From: Thermoplasmata archaeon
Lineage (GTDB): Archaea; Thermoplasmatota; Thermoplasmata; RBG-16-68-12; JAFNFQ01
Length of the DNA stretch: 24,112 bases
Direction of reading: 5' to 3'
Assembly (NCBI GenBank): GCA_041489255.1
Contig: JBGPQV010000029.1
Coordinates: forward strand, 1-24,112
A program made the position numbers and the translations under genes. Below the pieces are notes generated by a model. That model saw only the letters and a program-made list of their open reading frames with translations, was not told the DNA's origin and made no database searches. Positions 183 through 23,481 of this stretch are shown here, piece after piece. Numbering within the stretch: the first letter of the stretch is position 1; each line of letters starts with the position of its first letter.

Positions 183-404
183 ATGCGAATTGGCGGGATT
201 CCCTTGCGTCAGTCCACGTCGATGATTGGCGTCGAGCTCATGATCACGGGGATAGCGCTGGCCATGCTCATGTGGATGATGGGCGGGTTCATTCCGTCCG
301 GGGGCACAGAGGCCTGCATCCTCTGTGGAATGGGCCCAGGGCTCATCGTGCTGGGCTTGATCGTCTTCGTATATGGGCTCAAGAGGCCGCATGACGACGA
401 CTAA
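183..404 (+). CDS. Small two-TM membrane protein; true start may be ATG 222
   Basis: Two hydrophobic segments (LMITGIALAMLMWMMGG; GLIVLGLIVFVYGL), a KR stop-transfer and an acidic end. TATA-like TTTTATG at 163-169. Confidence 0.6.
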   Translation: MRIGGIPLRQSTSMIGVELMITGIALAMLMWMMGGFIPSGGTEACILCGMGPGLIVLGLIVFVYGLKRPHDDD

Positions 405-455: not shown

Positions 456-1232
456 CTACGCGAATCCGATGAAGCCTCTATCGTCGAACCCGACTGGCTT
501 CATGTCGTCCTCGGCTTCCACGCCCGCCGGTTCCGCCAGCTCGATTTCCTCGGGTTCTGCGTCGGTGCCTGAGTATGTCGAGGCCGCCAACTGAACTTCA
601 TCGGCGAGTGTCGAAACGAACGGGTGAGTGAGACGCTCCATGACGCTCCCGATCAGTGTGCTGACCATGCTGTTGACGACGGTCATCGCCTCGTTGAACC
701 CGAGCTCTTCGAGATTCAACAGGTTGTTGTTGTCGACGACGAGGCAGGTGTGGCTCCTCTCCTTGAGCCTCTGCAGGCCCTCCGATGCCTCGTGCATCCT
801 GCTCTCGAATGCGAACGGCATGACGGCGATGGAGATCACGAGGGCGTCCTTCCCGCCAGCCATCTCGGCGATGACCGGCGCGACATTGGTCCCCGTCTTC
901 CCGCCCATTCCCGCCACGAGGAACAGGACCTCAGCATCGAGGGCCCTCTCCAGAGCGGCTTTTGCCGCCACGGCAGAGGTCTCCGCTTCCTCGACGCCGC
1001 ATCGTCCCTGCCTGGGGAGGTCGAGAAGGACCTTGACGTCGGCCCTCGATCTTGTCAAGGACTCCTCGTCGGAGTTGATAGCCACGAGTTCGAGGCCGTG
1101 CAGTTCCTTGTCGTAGAGTGCGCTCACCACGTTGCATCCTGCCCCACCAACACCGACGACGCTTATGCGGGGGTCCATTGCGCTATCGGGCAGCGAGACG
1201 GTCGTTTCGTTGACTTGTCCTTTTGTTGTCAT
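456..1232 (-). CDS. ftsZ: FtsZ-like protein: GTP-binding domain only, divergent, lacking the C-terminal domain
   Basis: Motifs PRISVVGVGGAGCN, AINSD, AGMGGKTGTN (for GGGTGTG), PFAFE and VVDNNNL. GGAGG RBS upstream of ATG 1232. Only 258 aa. Confidence 0.85.
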   Translation of the reverse strand: MTTKGQVNETTVSLPDSAMDPRISVVGVGGAGCNVVSALYDKELHGLELVAINSDEESLTRSRADVKVLLDLPRQGRCGVEEAETSAVAAKAALERALDAEVLFLVAGMGGKTGTNVAPVIAEMAGGKDALVISIAVMPFAFESRMHEASEGLQRLKERSHTCLVVDNNNLLNLEELGFNEAMTVVNSMVSTLIGSVMERLTHPFVSTLADEVQLAASTYSGTDAEPEEIELAEPAGVEAEDDMKPVGFDDRGFIGFA

Positions 1233-1278
1233 GTTGTGCCTCCAGTGACTCTCTTCCGGTCCCGGCGAGGGTCGAATA

Positions 1279-1396
1279 GCACCAGAAGGTCAGCCCCGGG
1301 CGAAGGAGTACATCCCATCCCTTCGTAACAGGTTCCTGCGCGTCTATCCGGGGGAGACATGCGTTGTGGACCTCGCGGGAGTTGGCCTTCCGGTGC
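1279..1396. ncRNA. Putative structured cis-element (three-way junction) in the RHH-ftsZ intergenic region
   Basis: 1279-1297 pairs with 1378-1396 (17 of 19 bp on either strand). It encloses hairpins at 1301-1325 and 1330-1373. Confidence 0.45.
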
Positions 1397-1413
1397 CTGC
1401 TTCCTCGGCAACC

Positions 1414-1794
1414 TTAAGGCGGTATGACCTCGTCCTTTTCGTCGAGCTTGACGGAGACCATCTTTCCGGTCATTTTCTTCATCTCCGTCCTGTGCTCGTC
1501 CACGTTCTTCAGCCGGTCCTTCGAGAAATGCTCCTCGACCGCCCTGACGATGGCGTGCTCTCTGTTCAGGTAGTAGCCATCGGCGACGAGGTGGTCGATC
1601 AGCTCAAGGTAGTGCCGCGGCATTCTCACGGTGACTGTGTTTCCGCCCTTAGTCACGATTTCTATGAAGGCCTGAACGGCCTCCCTGCATAGTTTGCTCC
1701 TGTTCCCAAAGGTTGGGTTTTCCAACAGGAACTGATCAATCAGTTCCAGGTTGTCCTTTTCGAGCCGCAGGGATATTCGTTCTCCGGTCTCCAT
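1414..1794 (-). CDS. Tandem ribbon-helix-helix (CopG/CdrS-like) transcription regulator
   Basis: Two RHH units: ERISLRLEKDNLELID...NRSKLCREAV and TVTVRMPRHYLELID...YYLNREHAIVRAV. GGAGGT RBS before ATG 1794 (the ORF track uses 1839). Its position upstream of ftsZ matches cdrS-ftsZ2. Confidence 0.85.
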   Translation of the reverse strand: METGERISLRLEKDNLELIDQFLLENPTFGNRSKLCREAVQAFIEIVTKGGNTVTVRMPRHYLELIDHLVADGYYLNREHAIVRAVEEHFSKDRLKNVDEHRTEMKKMTGKMVSVKLDEKDEVIPP

Positions 1795-1889
1795 CCGCGC
1801 ACCTCCCTGGTTCCCGAGGCCCGGTATGACGTCGGTCACACCTTTTCCTTATGGGTTGCCAAGGTTTTGCGTGGGCTGTATCCTGCTCA

Positions 1890-1905
1890 TAACTATTAAA
1901 GCTTT
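1890..1905 (-). promoter_or_regulatory. TATA box of the RHH-ftsZ unit
   Basis: The minus strand reads AAAGCTTTAATAG, a BRE-like purine run followed by TTTAATA. Confidence 0.55.
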
Positions 1906-1937
1906 GTCCATGCGGCATACTAAATATGACAAAGGTT

Positions 1938-1962
1938 CGACGGTCGTCTACGACGACCGTCG
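1938..1962. repeat. Perfect 11-bp inverted repeat (possible operator)
   Basis: CGACGGTCGTC-TAC-GACGACCGTCG in the divergent RHH/leuS intergenic region. Confidence 0.7.
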
Positions 1963-2087
1963 CAGTGCGTGTTTCGTCTCAGTCGCGCACAGGAAGGCAT
2001 TTTCATAGGACTCCCTGGATAATTATGGTCGATTCCTCGGTCTAGCCTCGCACAAAGGTTAAGCGAAGAATGTTGTTCCCGTCTTGA

Positions 2088-4976
2088 ATGCCTAACGTGG
2101 ATCCGAGACTGAGGCAAATCGAGGAGAAGTGGCAGGCGCGCTGGACCGCCTCAGAGATATTCAAGGCGCGAGCGGATCCTTCCCGCCCGAAGTATTTCGT
2201 CAATGTGCCTTATCCGTACATGAACGGATACCTGCACATCGGTTTCGGCGTCACATTCCTCCACGCGGACATCATGGCCAGGTTCAAGTGGATGCGGGGG
2301 CATAACGTGCTGTTCCCGCAGGCCTTCCACTGCACAGGGATGCCGGTGCTGGCGGCGGCGAACCTTGTCGCGGAGGGGAATCCCGCCCAGATCAAGATAC
2401 TGGCCGATATGGGAATCCCCGAATCCGAAATACCATCTTTTTCTGACATCAACAAATGGACGAGCTTCTTCCCCGATGCTGCCCGCAAGGATCTCGCGAG
2501 CTATGGCGCCTCGGTCGACTGGACGCGCAGCTTCATCACGACGTCGCTGAACCCCGCCTACGACAAGTTCGTGAGATGGCAGTTCCGCAAGCTCCGCGAA
2601 AGGGGATTCGTCAAGACGGGGAAGCATCCGGTAATCTGGTGCCCCAAGGACCAGCAGCCCGTCGCGGACCATGACAGGTACGAGGGGGAAGGCGAAATCC
2701 CCGTCGAGTTCACACTGCTGAAATTCCCGTGGAGGGGCAAATTCCTGGTCGCAGCAACGCTGAGACCGGAGACGGTGTTCGGACAGACGAACCTCTGGGT
2801 CGACCCAGATGCGACGTACGTCGTCGCGAGGGTCGACGGGGAAGAGTGGGTGATGAGCCGGAGCGCGATGGAGAAGCTCAGAGAGCAGGACAGGCACGTC
2901 GAAACCCTCGAAGAGGTAAGGGGGGAGCTGATGGTCGGGGGGAAGTGCGAGGCCCCGATTATCCACCGCCAGATCCCCATCCTCCCGACCAGGTTCATCG
3001 ACCAGACGAAGGGCACCGGGATTGTGACCAGTGTCCCATCCGATGCCCCGGACGATTGGATAGCGCTGAAGACTCTCAGGGAAGACGCGGAGTACGCGCA
3101 CAGGCACGCTCTGAACCTCGATGAAATCAGGAAAATCGAACCGATCCCCATAATCCGCACGGAGGGCTGGGGTCCGCTACCCGCCGTCGAGATCTGCGAG
3201 AAGCTCGGCATCAAGTCGCTGGACGAGAGAGAGAAACTCGAGAAGGCGAAGGAGGATGTGTATTCATCCGGCTTCTATCGAGGCGTGATGCTCGAGATTT
3301 GCGGGCGCTATGCTGGGATGCATGTCGCAGAGGCCAAGGACGAAATCAAGCGGGATATGATTCAGGCAGGCGAGGCGTCGACTCTCTGGGAGGCGAGCGG
3401 GGAAGTGATCTGCCGCTGCAGGACCCGTGCCACCGTGAAAGTCGTCTCCGACCAATGGTTCCTTGCTTACGGCGATGCGGATTGGAAGAAGAGGACCGGA
3501 GAAGCGCTGAGCCAATTGATACTCTATCCCGACACTGTCAGGAAGCAATTCGAGCATGTCCTGGGCTGGCTGAACGACTGGGCGTGCACGCACCATGCAG
3601 GGCTCGGTACCAAGCTCCCCTGGGACGAGCGCTGGGTGATCGAATCGCTGTCCGATTCGACCATCTACATGGCCTACTACACGATAGCGCATCTCACCGC
3701 CAATCCCGCGCTGGACCCGGCGACGCTGACAGACGAAGTCTTCAACCATGTGTTCCTTGGTGAAGGGTCGTCCGAGGAAGCTTCGAGGATTTCCGGTCTT
3801 CCCGTCGAGACTATCGAGGAGATGAGGCGGGAGTTTGAGTATTGGTATCCATTCGACCTCCGCCACTCAGGCAAGGACCTGGTCCAGAACCACATGGCCT
3901 TCTGCCTTTTCAATCACACAGCGATGTTCCCTGAGAAACATTGGCCAAGGGGCTTCGGCATCAACGGCTTTGTCAAGATCGGCCATGTCAGGATGTCCAA
4001 GTCGCACGGCGTGGCACTGTACCTCAGGGACGTGATCCGAGAGCACGGAGCGGACGTCGTGAGGCTCGCCTCGGCCCAGGGCGGCGAAGGATTGGACGAC
4101 CCGAGCTACGATGACGAGTTCGCGGCTTCGGCAGGGAAGAAGCTCCTCTCGCTGATCGACTACGCAAAGGAACATCACGAGACCAGGGGCGAATGGCGGG
4201 AGCTCGATGCATGGTTCAGGTCGGTACTGCATCGGACCATCCGCCTCACCGCCAAAGCCATGGAGGGGATGTGGCACAGGACGGCCATCCGGCTCTGCTA
4301 CTTCGACCTGCAGCGCCAATGGGCCTGGTATCTGAAGAGGTGTGGCGGCGTACCCAATGCGGACGTCCTTCGCGAGTTCCTGGATGTCGAGACCAGATTG
4401 ATCACACCATTCGTTCCGCACGCGGCCGAGGAGATATGGGAGGCGACCGGGCACAAGGGGTTCGTGTCGACCGCACAGTATCCCGAAGTTGACGTGTCGG
4501 TAATCAATGCCGCCGCCGAATTCGCAGAGGAATATATCCACCAGCTTCTGGAGGACGTGCGGGAGATAATAAGGGTCACCGGAATCACGCCAAGAAGAGC
4601 GACCATCTTCACCGCTCCGGCGTGGAAGCGGCGCGTCTACGAAATGGCGGTTGACATCTCGCTGCGCGGGAAGGCGGAAATGGGCGATTTCATGAGAGAG
4701 GCTCTGCAATCGCCTGAACTGAAAGCGAAGTCGAAAGAGCTCGCCGCATTTGCCCAAAAGATTCTTGAGAGCATGAGGAAGATGGCACGCGAGAATCTGG
4801 AGCTGAGAAGAAGAACCATCGACGAGACGGCGATGCTGCGCGAATCGATAGAGTTCCTGGAGACGGAGCTGGGTTGCGCCGTGGTTGTGCTCGACGCAGA
4901 GGCCCCGGACATCGTGGACCCCAAGAAAAAGGCCGGTCAGTCTGCCCCTTGGAAACCGGCGATCTTCGTCGAGTAG
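2088..4976 (+). CDS. leuS: Leucine--tRNA ligase, archaeal/eukaryotic type
   Basis: Motifs PYPYMNGYLHIG, FHCTGMP, DHDRYEGEG, ATLRPET, GTGIVTSVPSDAPDD (CP1 editing), IESLSDSTIYMAYYT, GKDL, RMSKS and C-terminal PWKPAIFVE. Confidence 0.96.
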   Translation: MPNVDPRLRQIEEKWQARWTASEIFKARADPSRPKYFVNVPYPYMNGYLHIGFGVTFLHADIMARFKWMRGHNVLFPQAFHCTGMPVLAAANLVAEGNPAQIKILADMGIPESEIPSFSDINKWTSFFPDAARKDLASYGASVDWTRSFITTSLNPAYDKFVRWQFRKLRERGFVKTGKHPVIWCPKDQQPVADHDRYEGEGEIPVEFTLLKFPWRGKFLVAATLRPETVFGQTNLWVDPDATYVVARVDGEEWVMSRSAMEKLREQDRHVETLEEVRGELMVGGKCEAPIIHRQIPILPTRFIDQTKGTGIVTSVPSDAPDDWIALKTLREDAEYAHRHALNLDEIRKIEPIPIIRTEGWGPLPAVEICEKLGIKSLDEREKLEKAKEDVYSSGFYRGVMLEICGRYAGMHVAEAKDEIKRDMIQAGEASTLWEASGEVICRCRTRATVKVVSDQWFLAYGDADWKKRTGEALSQLILYPDTVRKQFEHVLGWLNDWACTHHAGLGTKLPWDERWVIESLSDSTIYMAYYTIAHLTANPALDPATLTDEVFNHVFLGEGSSEEASRISGLPVETIEEMRREFEYWYPFDLRHSGKDLVQNHMAFCLFNHTAMFPEKHWPRGFGINGFVKIGHVRMSKSHGVALYLRDVIREHGADVVRLASAQGGEGLDDPSYDDEFAASAGKKLLSLIDYAKEHHETRGEWRELDAWFRSVLHRTIRLTAKAMEGMWHRTAIRLCYFDLQRQWAWYLKRCGGVPNADVLREFLDVETRLITPFVPHAAEEIWEATGHKGFVSTAQYPEVDVSVINAAAEFAEEYIHQLLEDVREIIRVTGITPRRATIFTAPAWKRRVYEMAVDISLRGKAEMGDFMREALQSPELKAKSKELAAFAQKILESMRKMARENLELRRRTIDETAMLRESIEFLETELGCAVVVLDAEAPDIVDPKKKAGQSAPWKPAIFVE

Positions 4977-5031
4977 TCCGGCGACACACACGCAGCCGGA
5001 CGATCTGGTCCAGCCGAATTCAACCGCGATA

Positions 5032-5041
5032 GGTTTAAAAC
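5032..5041 (+). promoter_or_regulatory. TATA box of the tRNA gene
   Basis: GGTTTAAAAC about 25-30 nt upstream of the tRNA 5' end. Confidence 0.7.
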
Positions 5042-5102
5042 GAGCGCATCCATGTCAAGCGAGCGGGCCCGTAGCTTAGCTAGGTAGAGCGATCGGCTCT
5101 TA

Positions 5103-5131
5103 TCGGTTTTCCTTCGGGGAAACCGCGGGAT
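5103..5131 (+). other. tRNA intron at canonical position 37/38 (29 nt)
   Basis: Relaxed BHB (CTCT/CGGG helix, bulges TA|T and AT|A). Internal hairpin CGGTTTTCC-TTCG-GGGAAACCG. Confidence 0.9.
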
Positions 5132-5153
5132 ACCGATAGGTCAAGGGTTCGAA

Positions 5154-5176
5154 TGAAGGCGCAAACCTTCCGAGAC
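5154..5176 (+). other. tRNA intron at non-canonical position 59/60 in the T loop (23 nt)
   Basis: Strict BHB: GGG/CCC, bulge AC|T, 4-bp TTCG/CGAG, bulge AA|T, GAAGG/CCTTC. Splicing restores TTCGAAT. Confidence 0.9.
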
Positions 5177-5248
5177 TCCCTTCGGGCCCGTTGCCTATTC
5201 TGCGGTCCCGACTGATTATCTATAACTAAGGACGGATTATCCTGCCCG

Positions 5249-6016
5249 ATGGCCCGCAACCTCTACCTCATCGGGACGGCCGGCAGCGGAAAAAGCACTT
5301 TGACCCAGGCGTTCCAGTCGTGGATGCTGTCACAGAAGCTGGATGCGGTCACTGTAAACCTCGACCCTGGCGCGGAGAAGCTACCGTACGAGCCGGAAGT
5401 CGATGTCCGAGATTGGATCATGCTCAAGGACGTCATGGAGGAGCAGGGTCTCGGACCGAATGGTGCGCAGATACTCTGCGCGGACCTGGTCGCTCTGAAC
5501 ATCAAGGAGATCGTCGAGGTCCTCGAAAAGTTCGATACTGATTACTTCCTGATCGACACGCCTGGCCAGATGGAGCTATTCACCTTCCGGGAGTCGAGCA
5601 GGGTCGTAATCGATTCATTCGGCGCGGACGATTCGGTGCTCATCTATCTCAACGATCCTGCGTTGGTCAAGCGCGCCTCAGGTCTCGTCTCGTCAATCTT
5701 CCTCAGCGCGACGACTCAGTTCAGACACATGCTGCCTTTCATCAACATCCTCGCGAAAGCGGACTTGCTGAGCGAAGAGGAGACGGAGACGATAGTGAAC
5801 TGGTCCACGGACCCTTACGCGCTGCACGACGCGCTCGTCGAAGAAGGGACCACACCCAAGACCGTCCTGGACATCGAGTTCCTGAAGGCGATAGAGTCGA
5901 TCGGCCTATACAAGCGCCTCATTCCGGTCTCGGCTGAAGTGCAGAGCGGGTTCGGCGACGTGTTCGACCTCGTGCAGCAGACATTCGCTGGCGGGGAAGA
6001 CTTGAGGCCCGATTGA
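5249..6016 (+). CDS. GPN-loop GTPase (XAB1/PAB0955 family)
   Basis: Walker A GTAGSGKST, VNLDPG, GLGPNGA (GPN loop), DTPGQME, AKAD and VSA motifs. Confidence 0.95.
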   Translation: MARNLYLIGTAGSGKSTLTQAFQSWMLSQKLDAVTVNLDPGAEKLPYEPEVDVRDWIMLKDVMEEQGLGPNGAQILCADLVALNIKEIVEVLEKFDTDYFLIDTPGQMELFTFRESSRVVIDSFGADDSVLIYLNDPALVKRASGLVSSIFLSATTQFRHMLPFINILAKADLLSEEETETIVNWSTDPYALHDALVEEGTTPKTVLDIEFLKAIESIGLYKRLIPVSAEVQSGFGDVFDLVQQTFAGGEDLRPD

Positions 6017-17280: not shown

Positions 17281-20200
17281 TCAAGGTGTTCGCGGGGGAG
17301 GTGGCGAGGGTGGCGGCTGCAGCGGCGGCGAGGGTGGCGGGAACTGTGACGTTCCCTGCTGCGGGGGCAACGTTCCCTGCATCGGAGGTTGCTGCAACAT
17401 CGGTCCGCCTTGCTGACCCCTCCGCTCCTTCTTCCTCTTTCCAAGAAGGATGACAAGCACGACGCTGATGACCACGACTACAACGATGATGACAATCGAC
17501 AAGAGGACCCACAAGAGTGGGAAACCTGCTGCTGCGTCGCCTGGCGTCACCGTCACGGCCCATGTCGAAGAGACGGAATCAATCCCGTCGGTGACCATGA
17601 CCATGATCACGAACGAGCCGATCGTGGAGGACTGGAAGCTGTGCAAGGGCGAATTCGTCCCGACTGGCATGATGTTCACCGTCCAGCTGTAGCTGAGGAC
17701 GTCATAGTCGGCGTCGCTGGCGACCACGCTGAACGCCTGAGAGACTCCTGTCTTAAGGTTCGCGACCGCGAACGATGGCGTCCTGGAGGTGATTACCGGT
17801 TCCCTGTTGACCACATAGATGGTCAACGAGGTCAGGTCCGTTGCACCGTCACTGTCCGTGACTGTCAGCGTCACGCCGAACGACTGTTTCGAGGAGTAGG
17901 TATGCGTGACTATCGCTCCGGTGTCGCCATCTCCATCGCCGAAATTCCAGCTGTAGGATGAAATCGAGCCATCCGAGTCTGTCGAGCCGGTGGCATCGAA
18001 AGTGAAGACCGTGGTCACGTAACCAGACGAAGCGGGCGATACGGATGCCTGAGCTATCGGAAGTTGGTTAGCGACCGTGACCGTGAATGTGTCCATGTCG
18101 CTCTGGCCGGACAAATCCCAAATCGTGAGATTCACGGTGAAAGTCCCGAGTGATGCATAGGTGTGCGAGATCCTTTCGACGTTCGAGGTGAAGCCATCGC
18201 CGAACTCCCATTGCCACGCCGAGAGACCAAGGTCGTCTGTGGAGTTGGCGGCGTCAAAGACGAAGACCGAGTCCCTGAACCCATTCGTCATGGGCCAGAC
18301 CCTCGCATTGGCCATCGGCGGATCATCCACGTCTGGCGCATCAATCGCGATGGTCGGTGCTCCCGTGGCCCAATCCGTTCCGTCGGAAGCGCTGAAGGAA
18401 TACGCATAGTCCAGGCCAGATGGTGCCAGCGTCGTCGAAGCGTTGTAGACTGCTCCCGCGACGTAGTCCCCAGGCGCGCCGATCCATGACTCCCATGCCA
18501 AGGGCAGCGTGCCCCATGCGGTGCCCGACGGCTTCTCGATCAGGACATCGATGCTCGCAGGTGCGTCGTTGTCAAGGTCGGAGTACATAACCCTGAAGGT
18601 GAACAACGTGGAGGTGGTTCCGAGCTCGACGTCCAATCCGTCCGTCACGTAATTGCCTATACCCAGCCAGTTCAGGGTCGGAGCCGTATTGATTATGTCG
18701 GGGGCGTCGATGGGCGCGGTGGAATCGGACGCGCCCCAAGGATCCGAGGCAGTGAAATAGAATGTGTAATCCAGGCCCATGGCGGGGAGTGTCAATCCGA
18801 AGTCGTAGTCCCTGCCTGCCGCGAAGTCGTCGGGAGCTCCGACCCATGCTCCGGGCGTCATGGCGAAAGGTGATCCGGTGATAGGGACGCCGGCTTTCTC
18901 GATCCAGAGCAGAGGATTCCCTGGAACCGGTGCCTCGTTGTCCGCGTCGCTGTATCTGACAGAGTAGGCGAACAATGTGGTCGTGCTGCCGATCAGAGGA
19001 GCCACGGATGGCACGCCCAGCATCGGAGGCGTGTTGAGGATGGCGCTCGTCGTGAAGTTCCAGTCTGCGCTCCATCCTGACGGCTCCCAACCGTCGCTTG
19101 AACCGACATGCCAGCAATAAGCGCTGCTGATGTTGGTGACGAACGCTCCGCTCACGTTCGATGGTCCCACGCCGCTGGCCATTATGGAGGCGTAAGTGCA
19201 TGTCCCGTTCTCCTCGACCTCCCATGCATACGTGATTGGGTCGCCCTCCGCGTCGAAAGCTGTATCCCAAGTCATTGTCTGCGCGGGAGAGGCCGGGATG
19301 ATCGCGTCGTCCGGCGGGCTAATGGGGAATGCTGGGGCCTGAGGCGGCGTGTTGATGCGGGATTCCACCTCCGCCCAGCTGCACCACTGGACACCATCGA
19401 AGACTTGCACCCGGAAGTAGTAGGTCGCACCGTCCACAAGCGCAGCGCCATTGTAATTGACTGACGTCGCTGCACCGACTCCTGCGGGCGGATCCCACAT
19501 GAGGACCCCGCTACCCGAAGGCCCAGTCCACACCTGTACCTTGTACTCGCTCTGCGGGTCGCCGTCGCCGTCTGCGTAGCTCCACGCGAGAGGCGGGTCT
19601 CCCGGGGGAGTGACTATATGCAAGATGTCTGCGGTGAGCGCTGCGAATCCATTGACCGTAAGTCCGGCAGCGGTCGGCGGGGTGTTGACGCGGCTGTTCC
19701 ACGATTGCATGGGGAACACGCCTGCGACCGAATTGCCGCCGGCGAGCACGATGTCGCTCGCACCGGTCACCTGCGCTCCTATCGTCGCTCCGCTTGTGGC
19801 GGCGGCGGAGAAGTCGTAGATGATCAGGAATCGCTCCGGCGTGCCCATGATTATGTTCTTCGCCAGGCCCGTGAAGCTCGCAGAGCCACCTGAGAAGGTC
19901 GCGGTGGCTCCCAGTTGGACGTCGATAGCCGCGTCCAGGATTCCATTGTCATTCATGTCGTCAAAGAACTTCACTCCTGCAATGTCAGAATCGACACCCG
20001 TGCCCGTGGCGGTGACGTTGATTGCGTCGAAAGTCGCCATCGGGATGTTCGCCTCCATGGTCAGGTTCGCCATGGCCACATCGGTCTGCCCCTGCACAAC
20101 AACGAACGGTGCACGGTCGATCCATGTCACGATGACATCTGCCACAGGTGGTTTGCCGAGCACCAGGTTTCCGTATTCCTCAAGCGCGGGAGAGCCCATC

Positions 20201-23200
20201 ATCGGGCCGAAAGCAAACGGCCAGGAAGCGAAGTAGCCGAAGCCCCACGAATCCGACACTCCTGCCTGAGAGGCCCCAGCCGGAGAACCTGAGGCGAAGC
20301 CCAACGTGTCTCCAGGGACTGCGCCGAGTATCGCGAGCGGAACCTGGAACTCGATGACTGGATGGCTCATTGCCTCCAAGGGGGTCTGCGTGAAGCTCCT
20401 CTGCAGGTCGAGGGTGGCGTGGTTCGGCAAGCTGGATTCGAAAGGCGCGTCTTCCACGACCCAAGTCGCCGTGGTCGCGTTGTAAATCCTGTGATTCTGG
20501 TACGACTCGCTCCAACCGCCGACGCTGAAGATGTGTTCCATGCCTTCAGTCGCCACAGCGTCATTGCCGGTGTCGAACGCGATCGCTGCGGAGTCTTCGA
20601 AGTCGGCTGTGTGGTCTCCGACGACATCATAGGCGATGTAGAGGTTCGTCGCGTCGTTCTTGAGGAACATGAAGTTGGAAAGGCGGTTCCCCATCACCGT
20701 TCGAGGGTCGACCTGGAGCGCATCTGACCATTCTCCTGGAGAGAACTGGCCGTCGATGCTTGGTGGCGACAAGGTCCAAGGCGAGAAAATCGTGGGAATC
20801 GCCGCGATGCCGCGGACGACGAGGAGGCCGGTTGCGAGCGGGAAGTTGATTGGGGACACGCTGTCGCTGGTCATCGTGTCGATGTTGACGTTTGTCGGCG
20901 AGGATATCGTCAGGCCTATGGTCGCCAATGGAGTGGCGACCGGCGACAGATCGATCACGAGCAGGATTGATTCTGTCGTGCCGCCCTGAACCCGAAGTCC
21001 ATTCCAGCCGAACATCGGGTCGAAGGTTATCCATGACATCCCGCCTGAGAATGAGCTAGCGCCAAGGAACTGGTCTGTCAATGGATCCAGGAGCGAGTCG
21101 TCATCGACGTCGTGGTAGACCCCGACCGCGGAGACGTCTTGGTCCGAGGATGTTCCGACCCGGTTGATGCTAATGCCCCGGATTTCGACGTAATTGCTGC
21201 CGAGACCTGAAGGCACACTCAATCCGACCGTGCCCATCACGACCCCTGTCTCAAAAGGCGCCGCGGTCAGTGGAGCCAGGTTCGTCATATCCATCGTGAG
21301 GACATCCGAGGCGTTCATCTGAATGAGGGAATCGAACGATTGTGCTGGCAGATTGACTGGCGAGAGGACCGTTAACGTTTGGAAGCGGGCGGAGGTGACA
21401 TTGTCGATTCGCACCCCAACCGTGTCCCCCACCATCGCCGTCGTGCTGATCTGATAGGTCAAGATGAAGTTGCGGGGCGAGCTTGCGTAGATTTCTATCG
21501 GGCCCATGAACGGCGTCATCCTTGCGACCCATCCGAACACCGGGCCGCCGGAGAACCAGCCGCCCGCGGCCCTCAAGTCCGTGCCGAGATCCAGGACGCC
21601 ATCATAGTCCATGTCCGCCCAGAGACCGACCTGCCCCATCGGGCCGAATCCGATGTCCATCGCGTTCGGGGGAATCCCAGTCAATGTCACGTTCAGCCAG
21701 TTTGCGTTGTCGATCCTGGCCATGCCCGTGTCCACTGCAATGGTGAAGTCCGCCATCACCACGTTCGAGTCTCCCGTGAAGACCGTGGCGGGCGCCCTGT
21801 CGTTCCATGATGTGATGCTCACCGTGTTGGGTGTCCCCGCAACGACGAGAGCGTTACTGGAGATGCCAGGGAATCCTCCCGGCGCTATGACCGCGTTGCA
21901 GGTGTCGGTCATCATCTCGGCCGCCGAGGCCACGGAGCCCCCGATCGTGTCGCCCGGAACCGCATAGGGCGAGACATCGAAGACGACCAGGATGCGTTCG
22001 CGGTTTGCCGCTCCCGCGTCTATGCGGAATGAAATGAAGAAGGATGCGACTCCCGTGTTGAACACGGCATTCGCCAGTTCTTTATCGATCAGGGGCTCAT
22101 AGAAACCGTCGTCGTTGCTGTCGGAGATGAGGTACGCTCGGTACACATCTGCATCGCGCGGGGGAGTTCCCGTCATGGTCACGTTGACCCGTGTCAGCCT
22201 GACCGAGCCGGTGTCCACCGTGGCGTTCATCTCGAGCATCACGACGCCCCCTTCGCCTTGCATCACCGTGGCGGGAGCCCGGCCGGAGAACGACGTTGTG
22301 AGGGTGCTTGTGGGGAATGCCACGACCGTCGTCGTGCTGGAATCGATCGGGGCGGCCGGGGCATAGCTGACTGTGTCGATGCCCGCAAGGGTGGCGGATG
22401 GGATGGTGTCGGAAATGCGAACCCCGAGCGTGTCTCCGGGGAGCGCCCTGCATTGACAGTCAACCACGATTAGCCAGCGCTGCGTGCTGGTCGGGGTGAT
22501 AATCATTGGAGTCGTGAAGGTCACGGTCACGATTCCTGCCGTCGGAGAAGTCGATCCGATGATGAGCTGATCGGTGGACGTGTCGACCCTTGAGTTGTCG
22601 TTCGTGTCGTTGTAGATGCGCACGTATACATTCGAGTCCGCGACGGTGCCCAGCTTCTGAACCCTGAAGAACCTGAGGCCTATCGCGCCCGACCCCGCGG
22701 TCATCACATACCGCTCCATCAGGACCGACTCTGTCTGCATGGCGCTGGCGGGAGCGAAGTCCTGCCCCATGATCGTGAGGACGTCTGCCACCGGCGGCGA
22801 TGGAGGCGTGTATCTGACGTTCGTGCCGTTCCTGAGCATCCCAGGGGCAACGGATCCCGAGTACTGGAGGCCCATGTCACCCTGCTGGCTCTCGATTCCG
22901 GAGGTGATCGAGGAGTAGCCGTTCGGGATGCCTCTGTACTGGATGTCGATGACACCGGTGTCTTTCATGATGATCTGGAATTGCACACGGTAGGTTGCGG
23001 AGAGGCTGACGTTGTCCCATGTCACGACGCTCTGGGTCGCTTGCTTGTCGAAATAGACCATCCCGCTGCCCGGGAGCGTCGGGTCGAGAGAGGCGGAGCC
23101 GAATCCGATGATGTCGGCGTTGGGAATGCCGCTACCGGGGAGATTGATGTTCGCCGTTGTGCCGGAGTTCAGCGCTCCGGCGAATTTCACGAAGCCGTTG

Positions 23201-23481
23201 GGGCAGACCATCACATTGTTGTAGGCAACGCCATAGAACGTGAAGCCTCCAAAGAGGAAGTCGTTTGCTCCTGGCACGTTGTCGCAGTTCGTCGGCATGT
23301 TGGCCACGACGCTGCCCGCCGCAGTAATCCATGAGTACGGCGCTGTGTCATCGTAGGTGTAGCCGAAAGCGTCGGGACCACCCGACAGTGCTAGAACCTG
23401 ACTTGGGGCGATCATGAAAAGCGCCGCAAGCGAAGTCGTCGTCAAGATGGCCACTGCTACGATGCTCTTGTTTCTGTTCAT
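17281..23481 (-). CDS. Giant multidomain cell-surface protein (2066 aa)
   Basis: Signal peptide, GGPDAFGY NIDO-like domain, five ~160-aa repeats with D-x-[ND]-x-[ND] motifs, CBM9/DOMON-like domain, FN3-like domains, two PKD domains (WEFGDG, WNFGDG), C-terminal TM and a Pro/Gln-rich tail. Confidence 0.9.
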   Translation of the reverse strand: MNRNKSIVAVAILTTTSLAALFMIAPSQVLALSGGPDAFGYTYDDTAPYSWITAAGSVVANMPTNCDNVPGANDFLFGGFTFYGVAYNNVMVCPNGFVKFAGALNSGTTANINLPGSGIPNADIIGFGSASLDPTLPGSGMVYFDKQATQSVVTWDNVSLSATYRVQFQIIMKDTGVIDIQYRGIPNGYSSITSGIESQQGDMGLQYSGSVAPGMLRNGTNVRYTPPSPPVADVLTIMGQDFAPASAMQTESVLMERYVMTAGSGAIGLRFFRVQKLGTVADSNVYVRIYNDTNDNSRVDTSTDQLIIGSTSPTAGIVTVTFTTPMIITPTSTQRWLIVVDCQCRALPGDTLGVRISDTIPSATLAGIDTVSYAPAAPIDSSTTTVVAFPTSTLTTSFSGRAPATVMQGEGGVVMLEMNATVDTGSVRLTRVNVTMTGTPPRDADVYRAYLISDSNDDGFYEPLIDKELANAVFNTGVASFFISFRIDAGAANRERILVVFDVSPYAVPGDTIGGSVASAAEMMTDTCNAVIAPGGFPGISSNALVVAGTPNTVSITSWNDRAPATVFTGDSNVVMADFTIAVDTGMARIDNANWLNVTLTGIPPNAMDIGFGPMGQVGLWADMDYDGVLDLGTDLRAAGGWFSGGPVFGWVARMTPFMGPIEIYASSPRNFILTYQISTTAMVGDTVGVRIDNVTSARFQTLTVLSPVNLPAQSFDSLIQMNASDVLTMDMTNLAPLTAAPFETGVVMGTVGLSVPSGLGSNYVEIRGISINRVGTSSDQDVSAVGVYHDVDDDSLLDPLTDQFLGASSFSGGMSWITFDPMFGWNGLRVQGGTTESILLVIDLSPVATPLATIGLTISSPTNVNIDTMTSDSVSPINFPLATGLLVVRGIAAIPTIFSPWTLSPPSIDGQFSPGEWSDALQVDPRTVMGNRLSNFMFLKNDATNLYIAYDVVGDHTADFEDSAAIAFDTGNDAVATEGMEHIFSVGGWSESYQNHRIYNATTATWVVEDAPFESSLPNHATLDLQRSFTQTPLEAMSHPVIEFQVPLAILGAVPGDTLGFASGSPAGASQAGVSDSWGFGYFASWPFAFGPMMGSPALEEYGNLVLGKPPVADVIVTWIDRAPFVVVQGQTDVAMANLTMEANIPMATFDAINVTATGTGVDSDIAGVKFFDDMNDNGILDAAIDVQLGATATFSGGSASFTGLAKNIIMGTPERFLIIYDFSAAATSGATIGAQVTGASDIVLAGGNSVAGVFPMQSWNSRVNTPPTAAGLTVNGFAALTADILHIVTPPGDPPLAWSYADGDGDPQSEYKVQVWTGPSGSGVLMWDPPAGVGAATSVNYNGAALVDGATYYFRVQVFDGVQWCSWAEVESRINTPPQAPAFPISPPDDAIIPASPAQTMTWDTAFDAEGDPITYAWEVEENGTCTYASIMASGVGPSNVSGAFVTNISSAYCWHVGSSDGWEPSGWSADWNFTTSAILNTPPMLGVPSVAPLIGSTTTLFAYSVRYSDADNEAPVPGNPLLWIEKAGVPITGSPFAMTPGAWVGAPDDFAAGRDYDFGLTLPAMGLDYTFYFTASDPWGASDSTAPIDAPDIINTAPTLNWLGIGNYVTDGLDVELGTTSTLFTFRVMYSDLDNDAPASIDVLIEKPSGTAWGTLPLAWESWIGAPGDYVAGAVYNASTTLAPSGLDYAYSFSASDGTDWATGAPTIAIDAPDVDDPPMANARVWPMTNGFRDSVFVFDAANSTDDLGLSAWQWEFGDGFTSNVERISHTYASLGTFTVNLTIWDLSGQSDMDTFTVTVANQLPIAQASVSPASSGYVTTVFTFDATGSTDSDGSISSYSWNFGDGDGDTGAIVTHTYSSKQSFGVTLTVTDSDGATDLTSLTIYVVNREPVITSRTPSFAVANLKTGVSQAFSVVASDADYDVLSYSWTVNIMPVGTNSPLHSFQSSTIGSFVIMVMVTDGIDSVSSTWAVTVTPGDAAAGFPLLWVLLSIVIIVVVVVISVVLVILLGKRKKERRGQQGGPMLQQPPMQGTLPPQQGTSQFPPPSPPLQPPPSPPPPRTP

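Follow-up and report, generated by a model that had tools for sequence, protein, structure and literature searches.

A short FtsZ-type protein reduced to its nucleotide-binding domain and paired with a tandem ribbon-helix-helix gene in Thermoplasmata

Contig JBGPQV010000029.1 of a Thermoplasmata archaeon (GenBank assembly GCA_041489255.1), analysed here as one whole stretch of 24,112 nucleotides (the window), carries close to one end a gene for an FtsZ-type protein of 258 amino acids, which we call half-FtsZ (sFtsZ). The gene is intact, conserved in length, and under selection, and it is not a decaying FtsZ2. Half-FtsZ appears to be a functional, selected paralogue of FtsZ2 that has been reduced to the nucleotide-binding domain, the core helix H7, and a remnant of the T7 loop and helix H8. 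Its gene is predicted to be the second of an operon whose first gene encodes a tandem ribbon-helix-helix (RHH), CdrS-like protein. The half-FtsZ family seems to be widespread in its class and undescribed. Full-text literature searches found no description of an FtsZ family without the C-terminal domain in Thermoplasmatota or Methanomassiliicoccales, although supplementary tables and trees might list such sequences as "divergent" or "non-canonical", and the portions available of PMC9871819, PMC9856176, and PMC8178401 contain no mention of one.

Domain content, conservation and selection

The open reading frame (ORF) of half-FtsZ starts with ATG and ends with a TAG stop at 456-458, and its ribosome-binding site is as good as an earlier note on this DNA had judged it to be (Table 1). 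The same note had described an intact frame that holds the GTP-binding domain only. This description is correct, as Pfam recognises PF00091 alone (E 2.9e-24, residues 23-174) and finds no match to the C-terminal domain FtsZ_C (PF12327). The FtsZ equivalog model TIGR00065 reaches 130.8 bits against a cut-off of 295.2 and aligns over positions 13-209 of its 353. A six-frame search of the genome with PF12327 located five places, none of them on the contig of half-FtsZ; therefore, no frame-shifted remnant of the C-terminal domain lies nearby, in agreement with the view that the gene has suffered no frameshift.

In alignments with the genome's own four full-length FtsZs, including one made with L-INS-i, the stretch carrying the T3 loop (GLGAG) is deleted from half-FtsZ, and the T7 sequence NLDF(A/N)D of the full-length proteins is replaced by STL-ADE. 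The altered tubulin signature GGKTGTN (residues 110-116), the loss of T3, the sequence PFVSTLADEV in the place of T7 (residues 204-213), and the acidic linker followed by the terminus KPVGFDDRGFIGFA (residues 245-258) had all been reported in the earlier note and are all present. What the note had overlooked is that the acidic T7/H8 position survives as E212. Two of the three polar NxDxxD residues are lost and the last acidic one is retained; T7 is degenerate and not simply absent. Compared with canonical FtsZ as represented by TIGR00065, half-FtsZ possesses PF00091 and lacks the C-terminal domain, a score above the cut-off, the GGGTG(T/S)G signature and T3, and the NxDxxD of T7.

A structure predicted with AlphaFold2 (AF2) from a 27-sequence family alignment has a mean predicted local distance difference test score (pLDDT) of 75.9. 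Residues 20-204 form a confident Rossmann-type domain plus H7, with pLDDT mostly 82-95; the helix at residues 209-220 has a pLDDT of about 50, the linker 40-44, and the chain is disordered after residue 221 to the C-terminus. The earlier note had allowed that structure prediction might recover both T7 and the C-terminal domain, and the model shows neither. In Foldseek searches, the model matches the N-terminal domains of FtsZs over 180-210 columns with a query TM-score (TMq) of about 0.65, and the FtsZ:MciZ entry 4u39 is among these matches.

Homologues were sought in 5.8 billion clustered proteins, which gave 245 matches, 120 of them listed. Among the 120 matches listed, 57 clusters are 254-282 amino acids long, align to 97-100% of the query with identities of 38-98%, and contain PF00091 alone; the length of half-FtsZ is thus conserved in its homologues from end to end, a point that the earlier note had proposed to check. 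The named members of these 57 clusters come from Thermoplasmata metagenome-assembled genomes, and members of the family are annotated publicly as "hypothetical protein" or as "cell division protein FtsZ". Thermoplasmatota clusters of 245-268 amino acids are also present in the ESM Atlas, with automatic names only. The 27-sequence alignment consists of the half-FtsZ query and 26 of the 57 clusters. Invariant in all 27 sequences are the T1 glycines, G108, G110, G111, and G114 of T4, P139, F140, E143, and R145 of T5, D167 and N168 of T6, and E212, while T115 is nearly so. The GGKTG motif, whose conservation had been left as a question, is therefore fixed only in part, as the third T4 glycine position varies within the subfamily. 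In the tail, P246, V247, F249, G253, F254, I255, and G256 are invariant in the 27 sequences; F254 is replaced by Y in a relative of the same genus.

Selection was estimated by the Nei-Gojobori method from the comparison of half-FtsZ with this same-genus relative (locus L012, the same record as G177). The rate of nonsynonymous substitution (dN) is 0.069 and that of synonymous substitution (dS) 0.358, a dN/dS of 0.19. The earlier note had considered that close relatives might carry a full-length FtsZ2 here, leaving this copy under relaxed selection; the locus holds the short form instead, and the ratio speaks for constraint. The N-domain has a dN/dS of 0.18 and the linker the highest value, 0.27, while the C-terminal peptide, at 0.05, is the most constrained part of the protein, which upholds its expected conservation and fits a docking peptide. 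Pairs of sequences from the coded family f5 gave 0.19-0.29 for the gene and 0.08-0.19 for the tail. Half-FtsZ is also the fastest-evolving gene of its neighbourhood, with 86% amino acid identity to the L012 protein vs 94-99.6% for the flanking genes. Over window positions 456-6016, its dS of 0.36 is 2.5 to 7 times the 0.05-0.14 of the RHH, LeuRS, and GPN-type genes, which could be due to recombination or to a locally higher rate.

Origin and distribution of the short FtsZs

To place half-FtsZ, the window's genome and 20 further genomes, one from each of 20 coded families of the class, were scanned with PF00091, and the ORFs were labelled by their length and by the presence of an RHH gene upstream. 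Fifteen short (235-312 amino acids) RHH-linked ORFs from 14 of the 21 genomes passed E < 1e-40 and were entered in trees, every one of them with an RHH gene upstream; weaker short RHH-linked ORFs in four more genomes were left out. We regard an FtsZ-like ORF of 235-312 amino acids that ends just after H8, together with its tandem-RHH gene, as the half-FtsZ module of Thermoplasmata, and the window's pair fits this description. A full-length RHH-linked FtsZ occurs in 13 of the 21 surveyed genomes, and nine have both the short and the full-length form.

All trees were built from 194 N-domain columns, with FtsZ1 and FtsZ2 labels taken from gene context within the class and with no named reference sequences. 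In a quick tree of 106 rows, the 15 short proteins and a 264-amino-acid protein from a record titled Candidatus Methanogranum formed one clade with a Shimodaira-Hasegawa-like approximate likelihood ratio test (SH-aLRT) support of 96, which fell on the side of the RHH-linked full-length FtsZs. A quick tree of 58 rows placed the short clade (SH-aLRT 86) as sister to the full-length RHH-linked clade (88), with a joint support of 86, and gave an FtsZ1-type clade with 95. In a more careful tree, 14 of the 16 short rows formed a clade at 93/91, and the remaining two, both copies from one genome of the coded family f8, fell weakly within FtsZ2; a single clade of all 16 short rows was not rejected by the approximately unbiased (AU) test (p = 0.446).

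Profile comparisons point in the same direction. Among the paralogues in its own genome, the half-FtsZ family profile matches best the RHH-linked FtsZ on contig C27 (149.7 bits), and its alignments with the FtsZs of that genome extend no further than profile position 203-209. When the class was scanned with this profile at E <= 1e-30 (201 genomes), full-length FtsZs were matched as well, so that the tally is no measure of how the short family is distributed. Solved FtsZ structures (such as 1fsz, 1w5e, and 9v7v) are matched at E values of 1e-45 to 1e-30 and those of CetZ, 4b45 and 3zid, at 1e-13 and 1e-11. Since the profile matches FtsZ far better than CetZ, an identity of half-FtsZ as a CetZ was rejected.

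Published accounts place an RHH gene beside ftsZ2 and translation genes beside ftsZ1 in the parts available of three sources (PMC9871819, PMC8178401, and PMC7439475), the first of which, in its accessible part, gives an RHH_1 gene as typical of the ftsZ2 context. By this context half-FtsZ would belong to the FtsZ2 lineage, as a CdrS-type RHH gene lies immediately upstream on the same strand. Its architecture departs from that lineage, with one domain and a tail in which G-F-D plus GFIG is only GID-like. In the trees it is placed as sister to the RHH-linked full-length clade with a support of 86-93, and the FtsZ2 label is given by context only.

Six PF00091 matches were found in the window's genome, half-FtsZ included. 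Three are of the FtsZ1 type, a single gene on C3 and two genes in tandem on C2. The full-length FtsZ on C27 is preceded by a gene for a 105-amino-acid tandem-RHH protein whose top NCBIfam match is CdrS (two stretches, 59.1 bits), and on this gene context it would be the FtsZ2 of the genome. It ends in SGFLRR, while the FtsZ1-type proteins end in G(M/L)(D/E)VVR. The operons of half-FtsZ and of the C27 FtsZ both start with a tandem RHH gene that has CdrS as its best NCBIfam match in two stretches. Together with the sister relationship in the trees, the tandem RHH gene at the head of both makes duplication of the whole operon the simplest history; the sequences suggest an old duplication of an RHH-FtsZ2 operon, after which one copy lost its C-terminal domain.

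Comparison of the short forms with one another separates their shared traits from the local ones. In the alignment of the short clade, every short form breaks off directly behind H8. Throughout the clade the first two of the T7 polar residues are missing, with a one-residue deletion, and an acidic residue is mostly kept at the last T7/H8 aspartate position (E212). Most of the other short subfamilies of the class retain a T3 of the GxGxxG type and the canonical GGGTGTG. Degeneration or deletion of T3 and a variable third T4 glycine are found in the window's order only, where the subfamily of 258 amino acids is the most extreme. The loss of T3 and the altered signature are derived traits of the window's subfamily only. 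The tail PV(A/G)FD(D/E)xGFIG(L/F)(R/A) characterises the 258-amino-acid subfamily and has a weaker form in neighbouring families.

Several other tubulin-like genes were seen in the course of the survey. Contig C1 of the window's genome (locus L006 1294-2205) encodes a divergent 304-amino-acid, tail-less FtsZ-like protein with GGNTGGD at T4 and degenerate T3 and T7; its relatives in the order form a clade with 100/100 support, and similar tail-less proteins are present in many genomes of the class. The products of the tandem FtsZ1-type pair on C2 (loci L002 and L003) are 364 and 368 amino acids long. Both of these subtypes recur across the class, often adjacent to each other, so FtsZ1 itself was duplicated there. 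Long top matches of 744-840 amino acids in a library of representative proteins were considered as possible fused half-FtsZs and rejected, as they appear to be tandem fusions of two full-length FtsZs. Five such proteins (P0125, P0130, P0132, P0143, and P0151; 731-840 amino acids) have two PF00091 domains each, with two PF12327 stretches in four and one in P0143. Just upstream of the C27 operon lies a 271-amino-acid ORF (L004 83-898) that resembles a transposase by sequence reading.

The RHH gene, its promoter region and gene order

The gene upstream of half-FtsZ has CdrS as its best NCBIfam match, in two stretches with 44.6 bits, below the haloarchaeal cut-off of 100. Its start is most likely the ATG at 1794 and the GTG at 1839 is unlikely, because GGAGGT precedes the ATG, the 126-amino-acid relatives start there, and Box B overlaps the GTG extension. 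The protein has a conserved C-terminal extension, ...KDxIIPP. We compared 33 genome loci that hold a full-length member of the half-FtsZ family. The RHH gene precedes half-FtsZ in 32 of these, the remaining locus having 99 nt of upstream DNA only, and a divergent leuS lies beyond the RHH gene in 26, the other seven having too little upstream DNA.

Two palindromes, Box A and Box B, recur in front of the RHH gene (Table 1). Of the 29 upstream regions compared, 28 contain Box A, near -150 relative to the conserved ER codon, and all 29 contain Box B, at -59 to -70 (about -62), these counts being descriptive because the patterns were derived from the very sequences counted. The consensus of the relatives is GTC(C/A)TAC-GTC-GTATGAC for Box A and GTATGAC-N3-6-GTCATA for Box B; the two boxes have the half-site GTATGAC in common and a fixed spacing. 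A/T-rich, TATA-like words stand at the matching position in relatives, and the pattern of Box B has its sole match in the 2.74-Mb genome here. On sequence alone, two palindromes with a TATA-like word have the geometry of a putative autoregulated promoter. By binding both boxes, the tandem-RHH protein would autoregulate its operon, akin to the control of cdrS-ftsZ2 by CdrL and CdrS. In haloarchaea, according to the part available of Darnell et al. (2020; PMC7439475), cdrS and ftsZ2 are co-transcribed and CdrL binds upstream of them.

Table 1. Features of half-FtsZ, of its neighbourhood in the window, and of the full-length RHH-linked operon elsewhere in the genome.
Feature	Position	Strand	Details and basis
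Half-FtsZ (sFtsZ) coding sequence	456..1232	minus	258 amino acids and TAG stop; ORF list, translation
Shine-Dalgarno-like GGAGG	1239..1243	minus	6 nt 5' of the half-FtsZ ATG; read from sequence
GTPase domain and core helix H7	618..1175	minus	residues 20-205; AF2, Foldseek, profile alignment
T4 tubulin-signature region GMGGKTGTN	885..911	minus	residues 108-116; translation, alignment
Degenerate T7 and H8-like helix (predicted)	573..626	minus	residues 203-220, HPFVSTLADEVQ..., invariant E212; alignments, AF2
Acidic linker, poorly conserved, predicted disordered	498..572	minus	residues 221-245; pLDDT 40-44, dN/dS 0.27
Conserved C-terminal peptide PVGFDDRGFIGFA	459..497	minus	residues 246-258; 27-sequence alignment, dN/dS 0.05
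Tandem RHH (CdrS-like) regulator gene	1414..1794	minus	126 amino acids from ATG 1794; ORF list extends to GTG 1839
Box B palindrome GTGTGAC-N4-GTCATA	1825..1841	minus	5' leader of the RHH gene; upstream-region comparison
TATA-like TTTAATAG between Box A and Box B	1893..1900	minus	putative promoter element; read from sequence
Box A imperfect palindrome GTCATAT-TTA-GTATGCC	1914..1930	minus	just upstream of the TATA-like box; upstream-region comparison
Leucyl-tRNA synthetase gene (leuS), divergent neighbour	2088..4976	plus	Pfam tRNA-synt_1, Anticodon_1
Tandem-RHH and full-length FtsZ operon	G000:C27, locus L004 1002-2505		PF00091, NCBIfam CdrS

Between leuS and Box A, the window also has an 11-nt inverted repeat whose arms match perfectly and lie 3 nt apart (CGACGGTCGTC / GACGACCGTCG, 1938-1962), which is common to the same-genus relative and not to more distant loci. 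Downstream of half-FtsZ, nucleotide homology with L012 stops exactly at its stop codon, at position 456. Beyond this point L012 carries a YjbQ-like gene and a GTP-cyclohydrolase-like gene, both named by sequence reading, and the window has unrelated DNA to the contig end (1-455), with a convergent 73-amino-acid ORF of two transmembrane segments on the plus strand (183..404). No homologue of this ORF was found in the relatives, and a crude hydropathy screen of 30 loci for a small, co-oriented membrane ORF within 450 nt downstream of half-FtsZ found none that was conserved, with two unrelated matches. At the far end of the window, the ORF list holds an ORF of 2066 amino acids (17281-23481, minus strand).

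The RHH gene at the head of the operon, the full-length RHH-linked FtsZ2 that coexists with it in the genome, and the surviving E212 are all features beyond those recorded in the earlier note.

Possible roles and known systems

In FtsZ filaments, the GTPase site of a subunit is completed by the T7 loop and the C-terminal domain of the preceding subunit, and these parts also make up half of the longitudinal contact. Our leading reading, which we hold tentatively and at somewhat less than even confidence, is that half-FtsZ is a non-propagating, GTP-loaded subunit of the FtsZ type that modulates the division machinery and is tethered to it via the tail. Half-FtsZ would still bind guanine nucleotide, which we infer because T1, the T4 glycines, T5, T6, and the H7 contacts are conserved. 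Having lost the activating domain and two of the three polar residues of T7, it would be unable to build a canonical protofilament or to activate the GTP hydrolysis of an adjacent subunit, and the window's subfamily would additionally be without the gamma-phosphate-sensing T3 loop. The C-terminal peptide may tether the protein to a partner that recognises FtsZ-type tails, either SepF or another ring component. The nucleotide face could then accept the T7 face of a full-length FtsZ and thereby end or limit the filament. Such capping of filament ends is the most specific form of the modulator reading, with a hypothetical capping step and a hypothetical tail partner.

In the part of PMC8178401 that was available, archaeal FtsZ tails are described as centred on a near-invariant GID motif that binds SepF. 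The tail of half-FtsZ has G-F-D (A-F-D in most relatives) followed by GFIG; to judge by these letters, the former may recall the GID of archaeal FtsZ tails and the latter the SGFLRR of the genome's own FtsZ2. SepF itself was found in every one of 25 genomes of the order. A complex predicted, without controls, for the SepF core (residues 38-130, two copies, 19-row alignment) and the half-FtsZ tail (residues 213-258) scored 0.01 against a mark of 0.32, which counts neither for nor against binding.

Several observations weigh against a modulator of canonical filaments. The window's subfamily has lost T3, which is part of the face that receives the T7 of the neighbour, has another residue in place of the T2 glutamine, and varies at the third glycine of T4; these changes make for a weaker case for the canonical longitudinal contact. 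The C-terminal tails differ between the short subfamilies. Binding of half-FtsZ to FtsZ, to SepF, or to nucleotide is inferred from sequence. The FtsZ1 and FtsZ2 labels of the trees rest on gene context within the class, and deep support is moderate. Evidence of expression is thin, and the metatranscriptome contigs that provide it could be DNA carry-over: one sediment metatranscriptome gave three near-identical short contigs (852-1000) and one at 95% identity (971-1085), and three other runs gave 90-95% relatives of the RHH gene only.

A further objection comes from the coded family f11, sampled by six genomes, five of them single-contig and 99% complete. In all six, the sole strong gene of the tubulin family is a short frame of 237-260 amino acids, which is RHH-linked and scores best against the short-clade model; in the careful tree, the f11 short protein groups with that of Methanogranum at 100/84. 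FtsZ_C was absent from the five f11 genomes searched for it, and SepF was found in three of five. With the short form as the only strong FtsZ homologue of f11, serving canonical FtsZ as a mere accessory cannot be the role of the family in every lineage, and as SepF was found in only three of five f11 genomes, it cannot be the universal partner. Five of the six also have a second, weak and divergent tubulin-like gene of 279-311 amino acids (loci L160 and L213-L216), whose C-terminal part is not recognised by PF12327.

These genomes lend some weight to half-FtsZ as an autonomous minimal FtsZ, which would self-associate via the nucleotide face and what is left of H8, E212 included, and have its own job at the membrane or division site without depending on canonical FtsZ, perhaps with the tail-less FtsZ-like proteins. 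We consider this unlikely, if well worth keeping in view. The short protein is the sole strong FtsZ homologue in the six f11 genomes, the T7 region of the second gene found in five of them, GPFFSTLSERVYT, resembles the PFVSTLADEV of the short family, the acidic E212 position is kept across most of the short clade, and half-FtsZ forms an old family that has persisted widely among the families of the class. Opposed to this are the missing half of the canonical longitudinal interface and the two missing T7 residues, the additional loss of T3 in the window's subfamily, and the low confidence of the H8-like helix in the AF2 model; the window's genome, moreover, has four full-length FtsZs, and autonomy is not required there. 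A related proposal, which we rate as rather doubtful, makes half-FtsZ no accessory of the Z ring but the core of a minimal FtsZ-type system without an activating domain and with an RHH regulator, and perhaps with the divergent tail-less FtsZ-like proteins, standing in for FtsZ1 and FtsZ2, as the f11 genomes, which keep this form only, would suggest.

An RHH DNA-binding protein gene that directly precedes a gene for a tubulin-superfamily GTPase, with conserved palindromes adjacent, could also be a partition-like cassette for positioning DNA, as in TubZ-TubR-tubC or ParM-ParR-parC. The boxes would then serve as a centromere, through which the RHH protein couples the DNA to the GTPase, and its conserved extension ending in KDxIIPP would agree with such a cassette. 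This is improbable for several reasons. There are just two palindromes, fixed in position and bracketing a TATA-like box or lying in the 5' leader, which is the geometry of operators and not of a repeat array. The locus is chromosomal and single-copy, and leuS adjoins it in 26 of 33 loci; the best matches of the family profile are FtsZs, and the GTPase is without the domain needed for filaments. The cassette is also sister to the RHH-FtsZ2 operon, and the haloarchaeal RHH protein of that operon serves as a transcription factor according to the available part of PMC7439475.

That half-FtsZ is a decaying remnant of FtsZ2, either a pseudogene or a recently truncated and functionless copy, is scarcely credible and is refuted by conservation and selection: the missing C-terminal domain, the altered T3, T4, and T7 motifs, and the fast evolution of the gene would suit it, and against it stand a length and architecture kept down to 38% identity in the 57 clusters, the low dN/dS of the gene and above all of its tail, a short clade that spans many families of the class, the conserved ribosome-binding site and operon structure, and a full-length FtsZ2 that coexists in the genome.

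The known proteins of FtsZ-based division in archaea are few, namely FtsZ1, FtsZ2, SepF, CdrS/L, and some newer ring proteins. Half-FtsZ would add to these a selected, class-wide FtsZ paralogue that has shed a domain thought to be indispensable for polymerisation and for GTPase activation. Should it modulate the ends of filaments, it would represent a new kind of division regulator and the counterpart in nature of the engineered "capper" subunits that were used to establish the polarity of FtsZ filaments. If half-FtsZ acts alone, it would change the minimal functional unit of the tubulin/FtsZ fold and raise the question of how the methanogen-related archaea of f11 divide; as the core of a minimal system, it would have no known precedent in the tubulin superfamily as a GTPase that functions with a single domain.

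The closest known system to the half-FtsZ module is the cdrS-ftsZ2 operon of Euryarchaeota (Halobacterium salinarum and Haloferax volcanii), reportedly treated by Liao et al. in 2021 (PMC8406309). In both, a small RHH regulator lies directly upstream of, and co-oriented with, a tubulin homologue on the FtsZ2 side, and the RHH protein of the window has CdrS as its best NCBIfam match. They differ in that half-FtsZ is without the C-terminal domain and, in the window's subfamily, without T3, in that the RHH protein of the window is a tandem repeat of 126 amino acids with a C-terminal extension, and in that the window's module coexists with a separate operon of a tandem-RHH gene and a full-length FtsZ2. 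With canonical FtsZ, half-FtsZ shares the fold and sequence of the GTPase domain and has kept T1, T5, T6, and H7; unlike it, half-FtsZ has no PF12327 and no T3, has GGKTGTN as its signature, and has lost two of the three T7 polar residues.

Closest in the proposed action are the N-terminal domain of FtsZ, reportedly expressed separately by Oliva, Cordell, and Lowe in 2004, and the one-face "capper" FtsZ mutants said to have been engineered by Du, Pichoff, Kruse, and Lutkenhaus in 2018. Such constructs reportedly bind nucleotide, cannot activate hydrolysis, and poison filament growth at sub-stoichiometric amounts. They resemble half-FtsZ in having a usable nucleotide face (in half-FtsZ, a predicted one) and a defective T7 or C-domain face. 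These constructs were made in the laboratory, whereas half-FtsZ is natural, ancient, and selected, with a tail and a regulator of its own. MciZ and SulA likewise cap or sequester FtsZ, and limiting filament ends is also the outcome proposed for half-FtsZ. However, they have unrelated folds that bind the C-terminal subdomain or the T7 face of FtsZ, while half-FtsZ would act as a defective subunit.

Two further systems are comparable by analogy. ARC3 of plant chloroplasts combines MORN repeats with an FtsZ-like domain whose GTP site does not work, and is a negative regulator of FtsZ assembly. It is, like half-FtsZ, a degenerate paralogue derived from FtsZ, and, as half-FtsZ might, it regulates canonical FtsZ and forms no ring itself; it is eukaryotic, has other added domains, keeps more of the FtsZ fold, and has no evolutionary link to half-FtsZ. 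The TubZ-TubR-tubC systems (type III partition) of plasmids or phages combine the winged-helix protein TubR, the two-domain, filament-forming TubZ, and an iterated tubC array. As in the window, the gene of a DNA-binding protein adjoins that of a tubulin-superfamily GTPase, with repeats nearby, but the window has an RHH protein, a one-domain GTPase, two operator-like palindromes, and a chromosomal locus.

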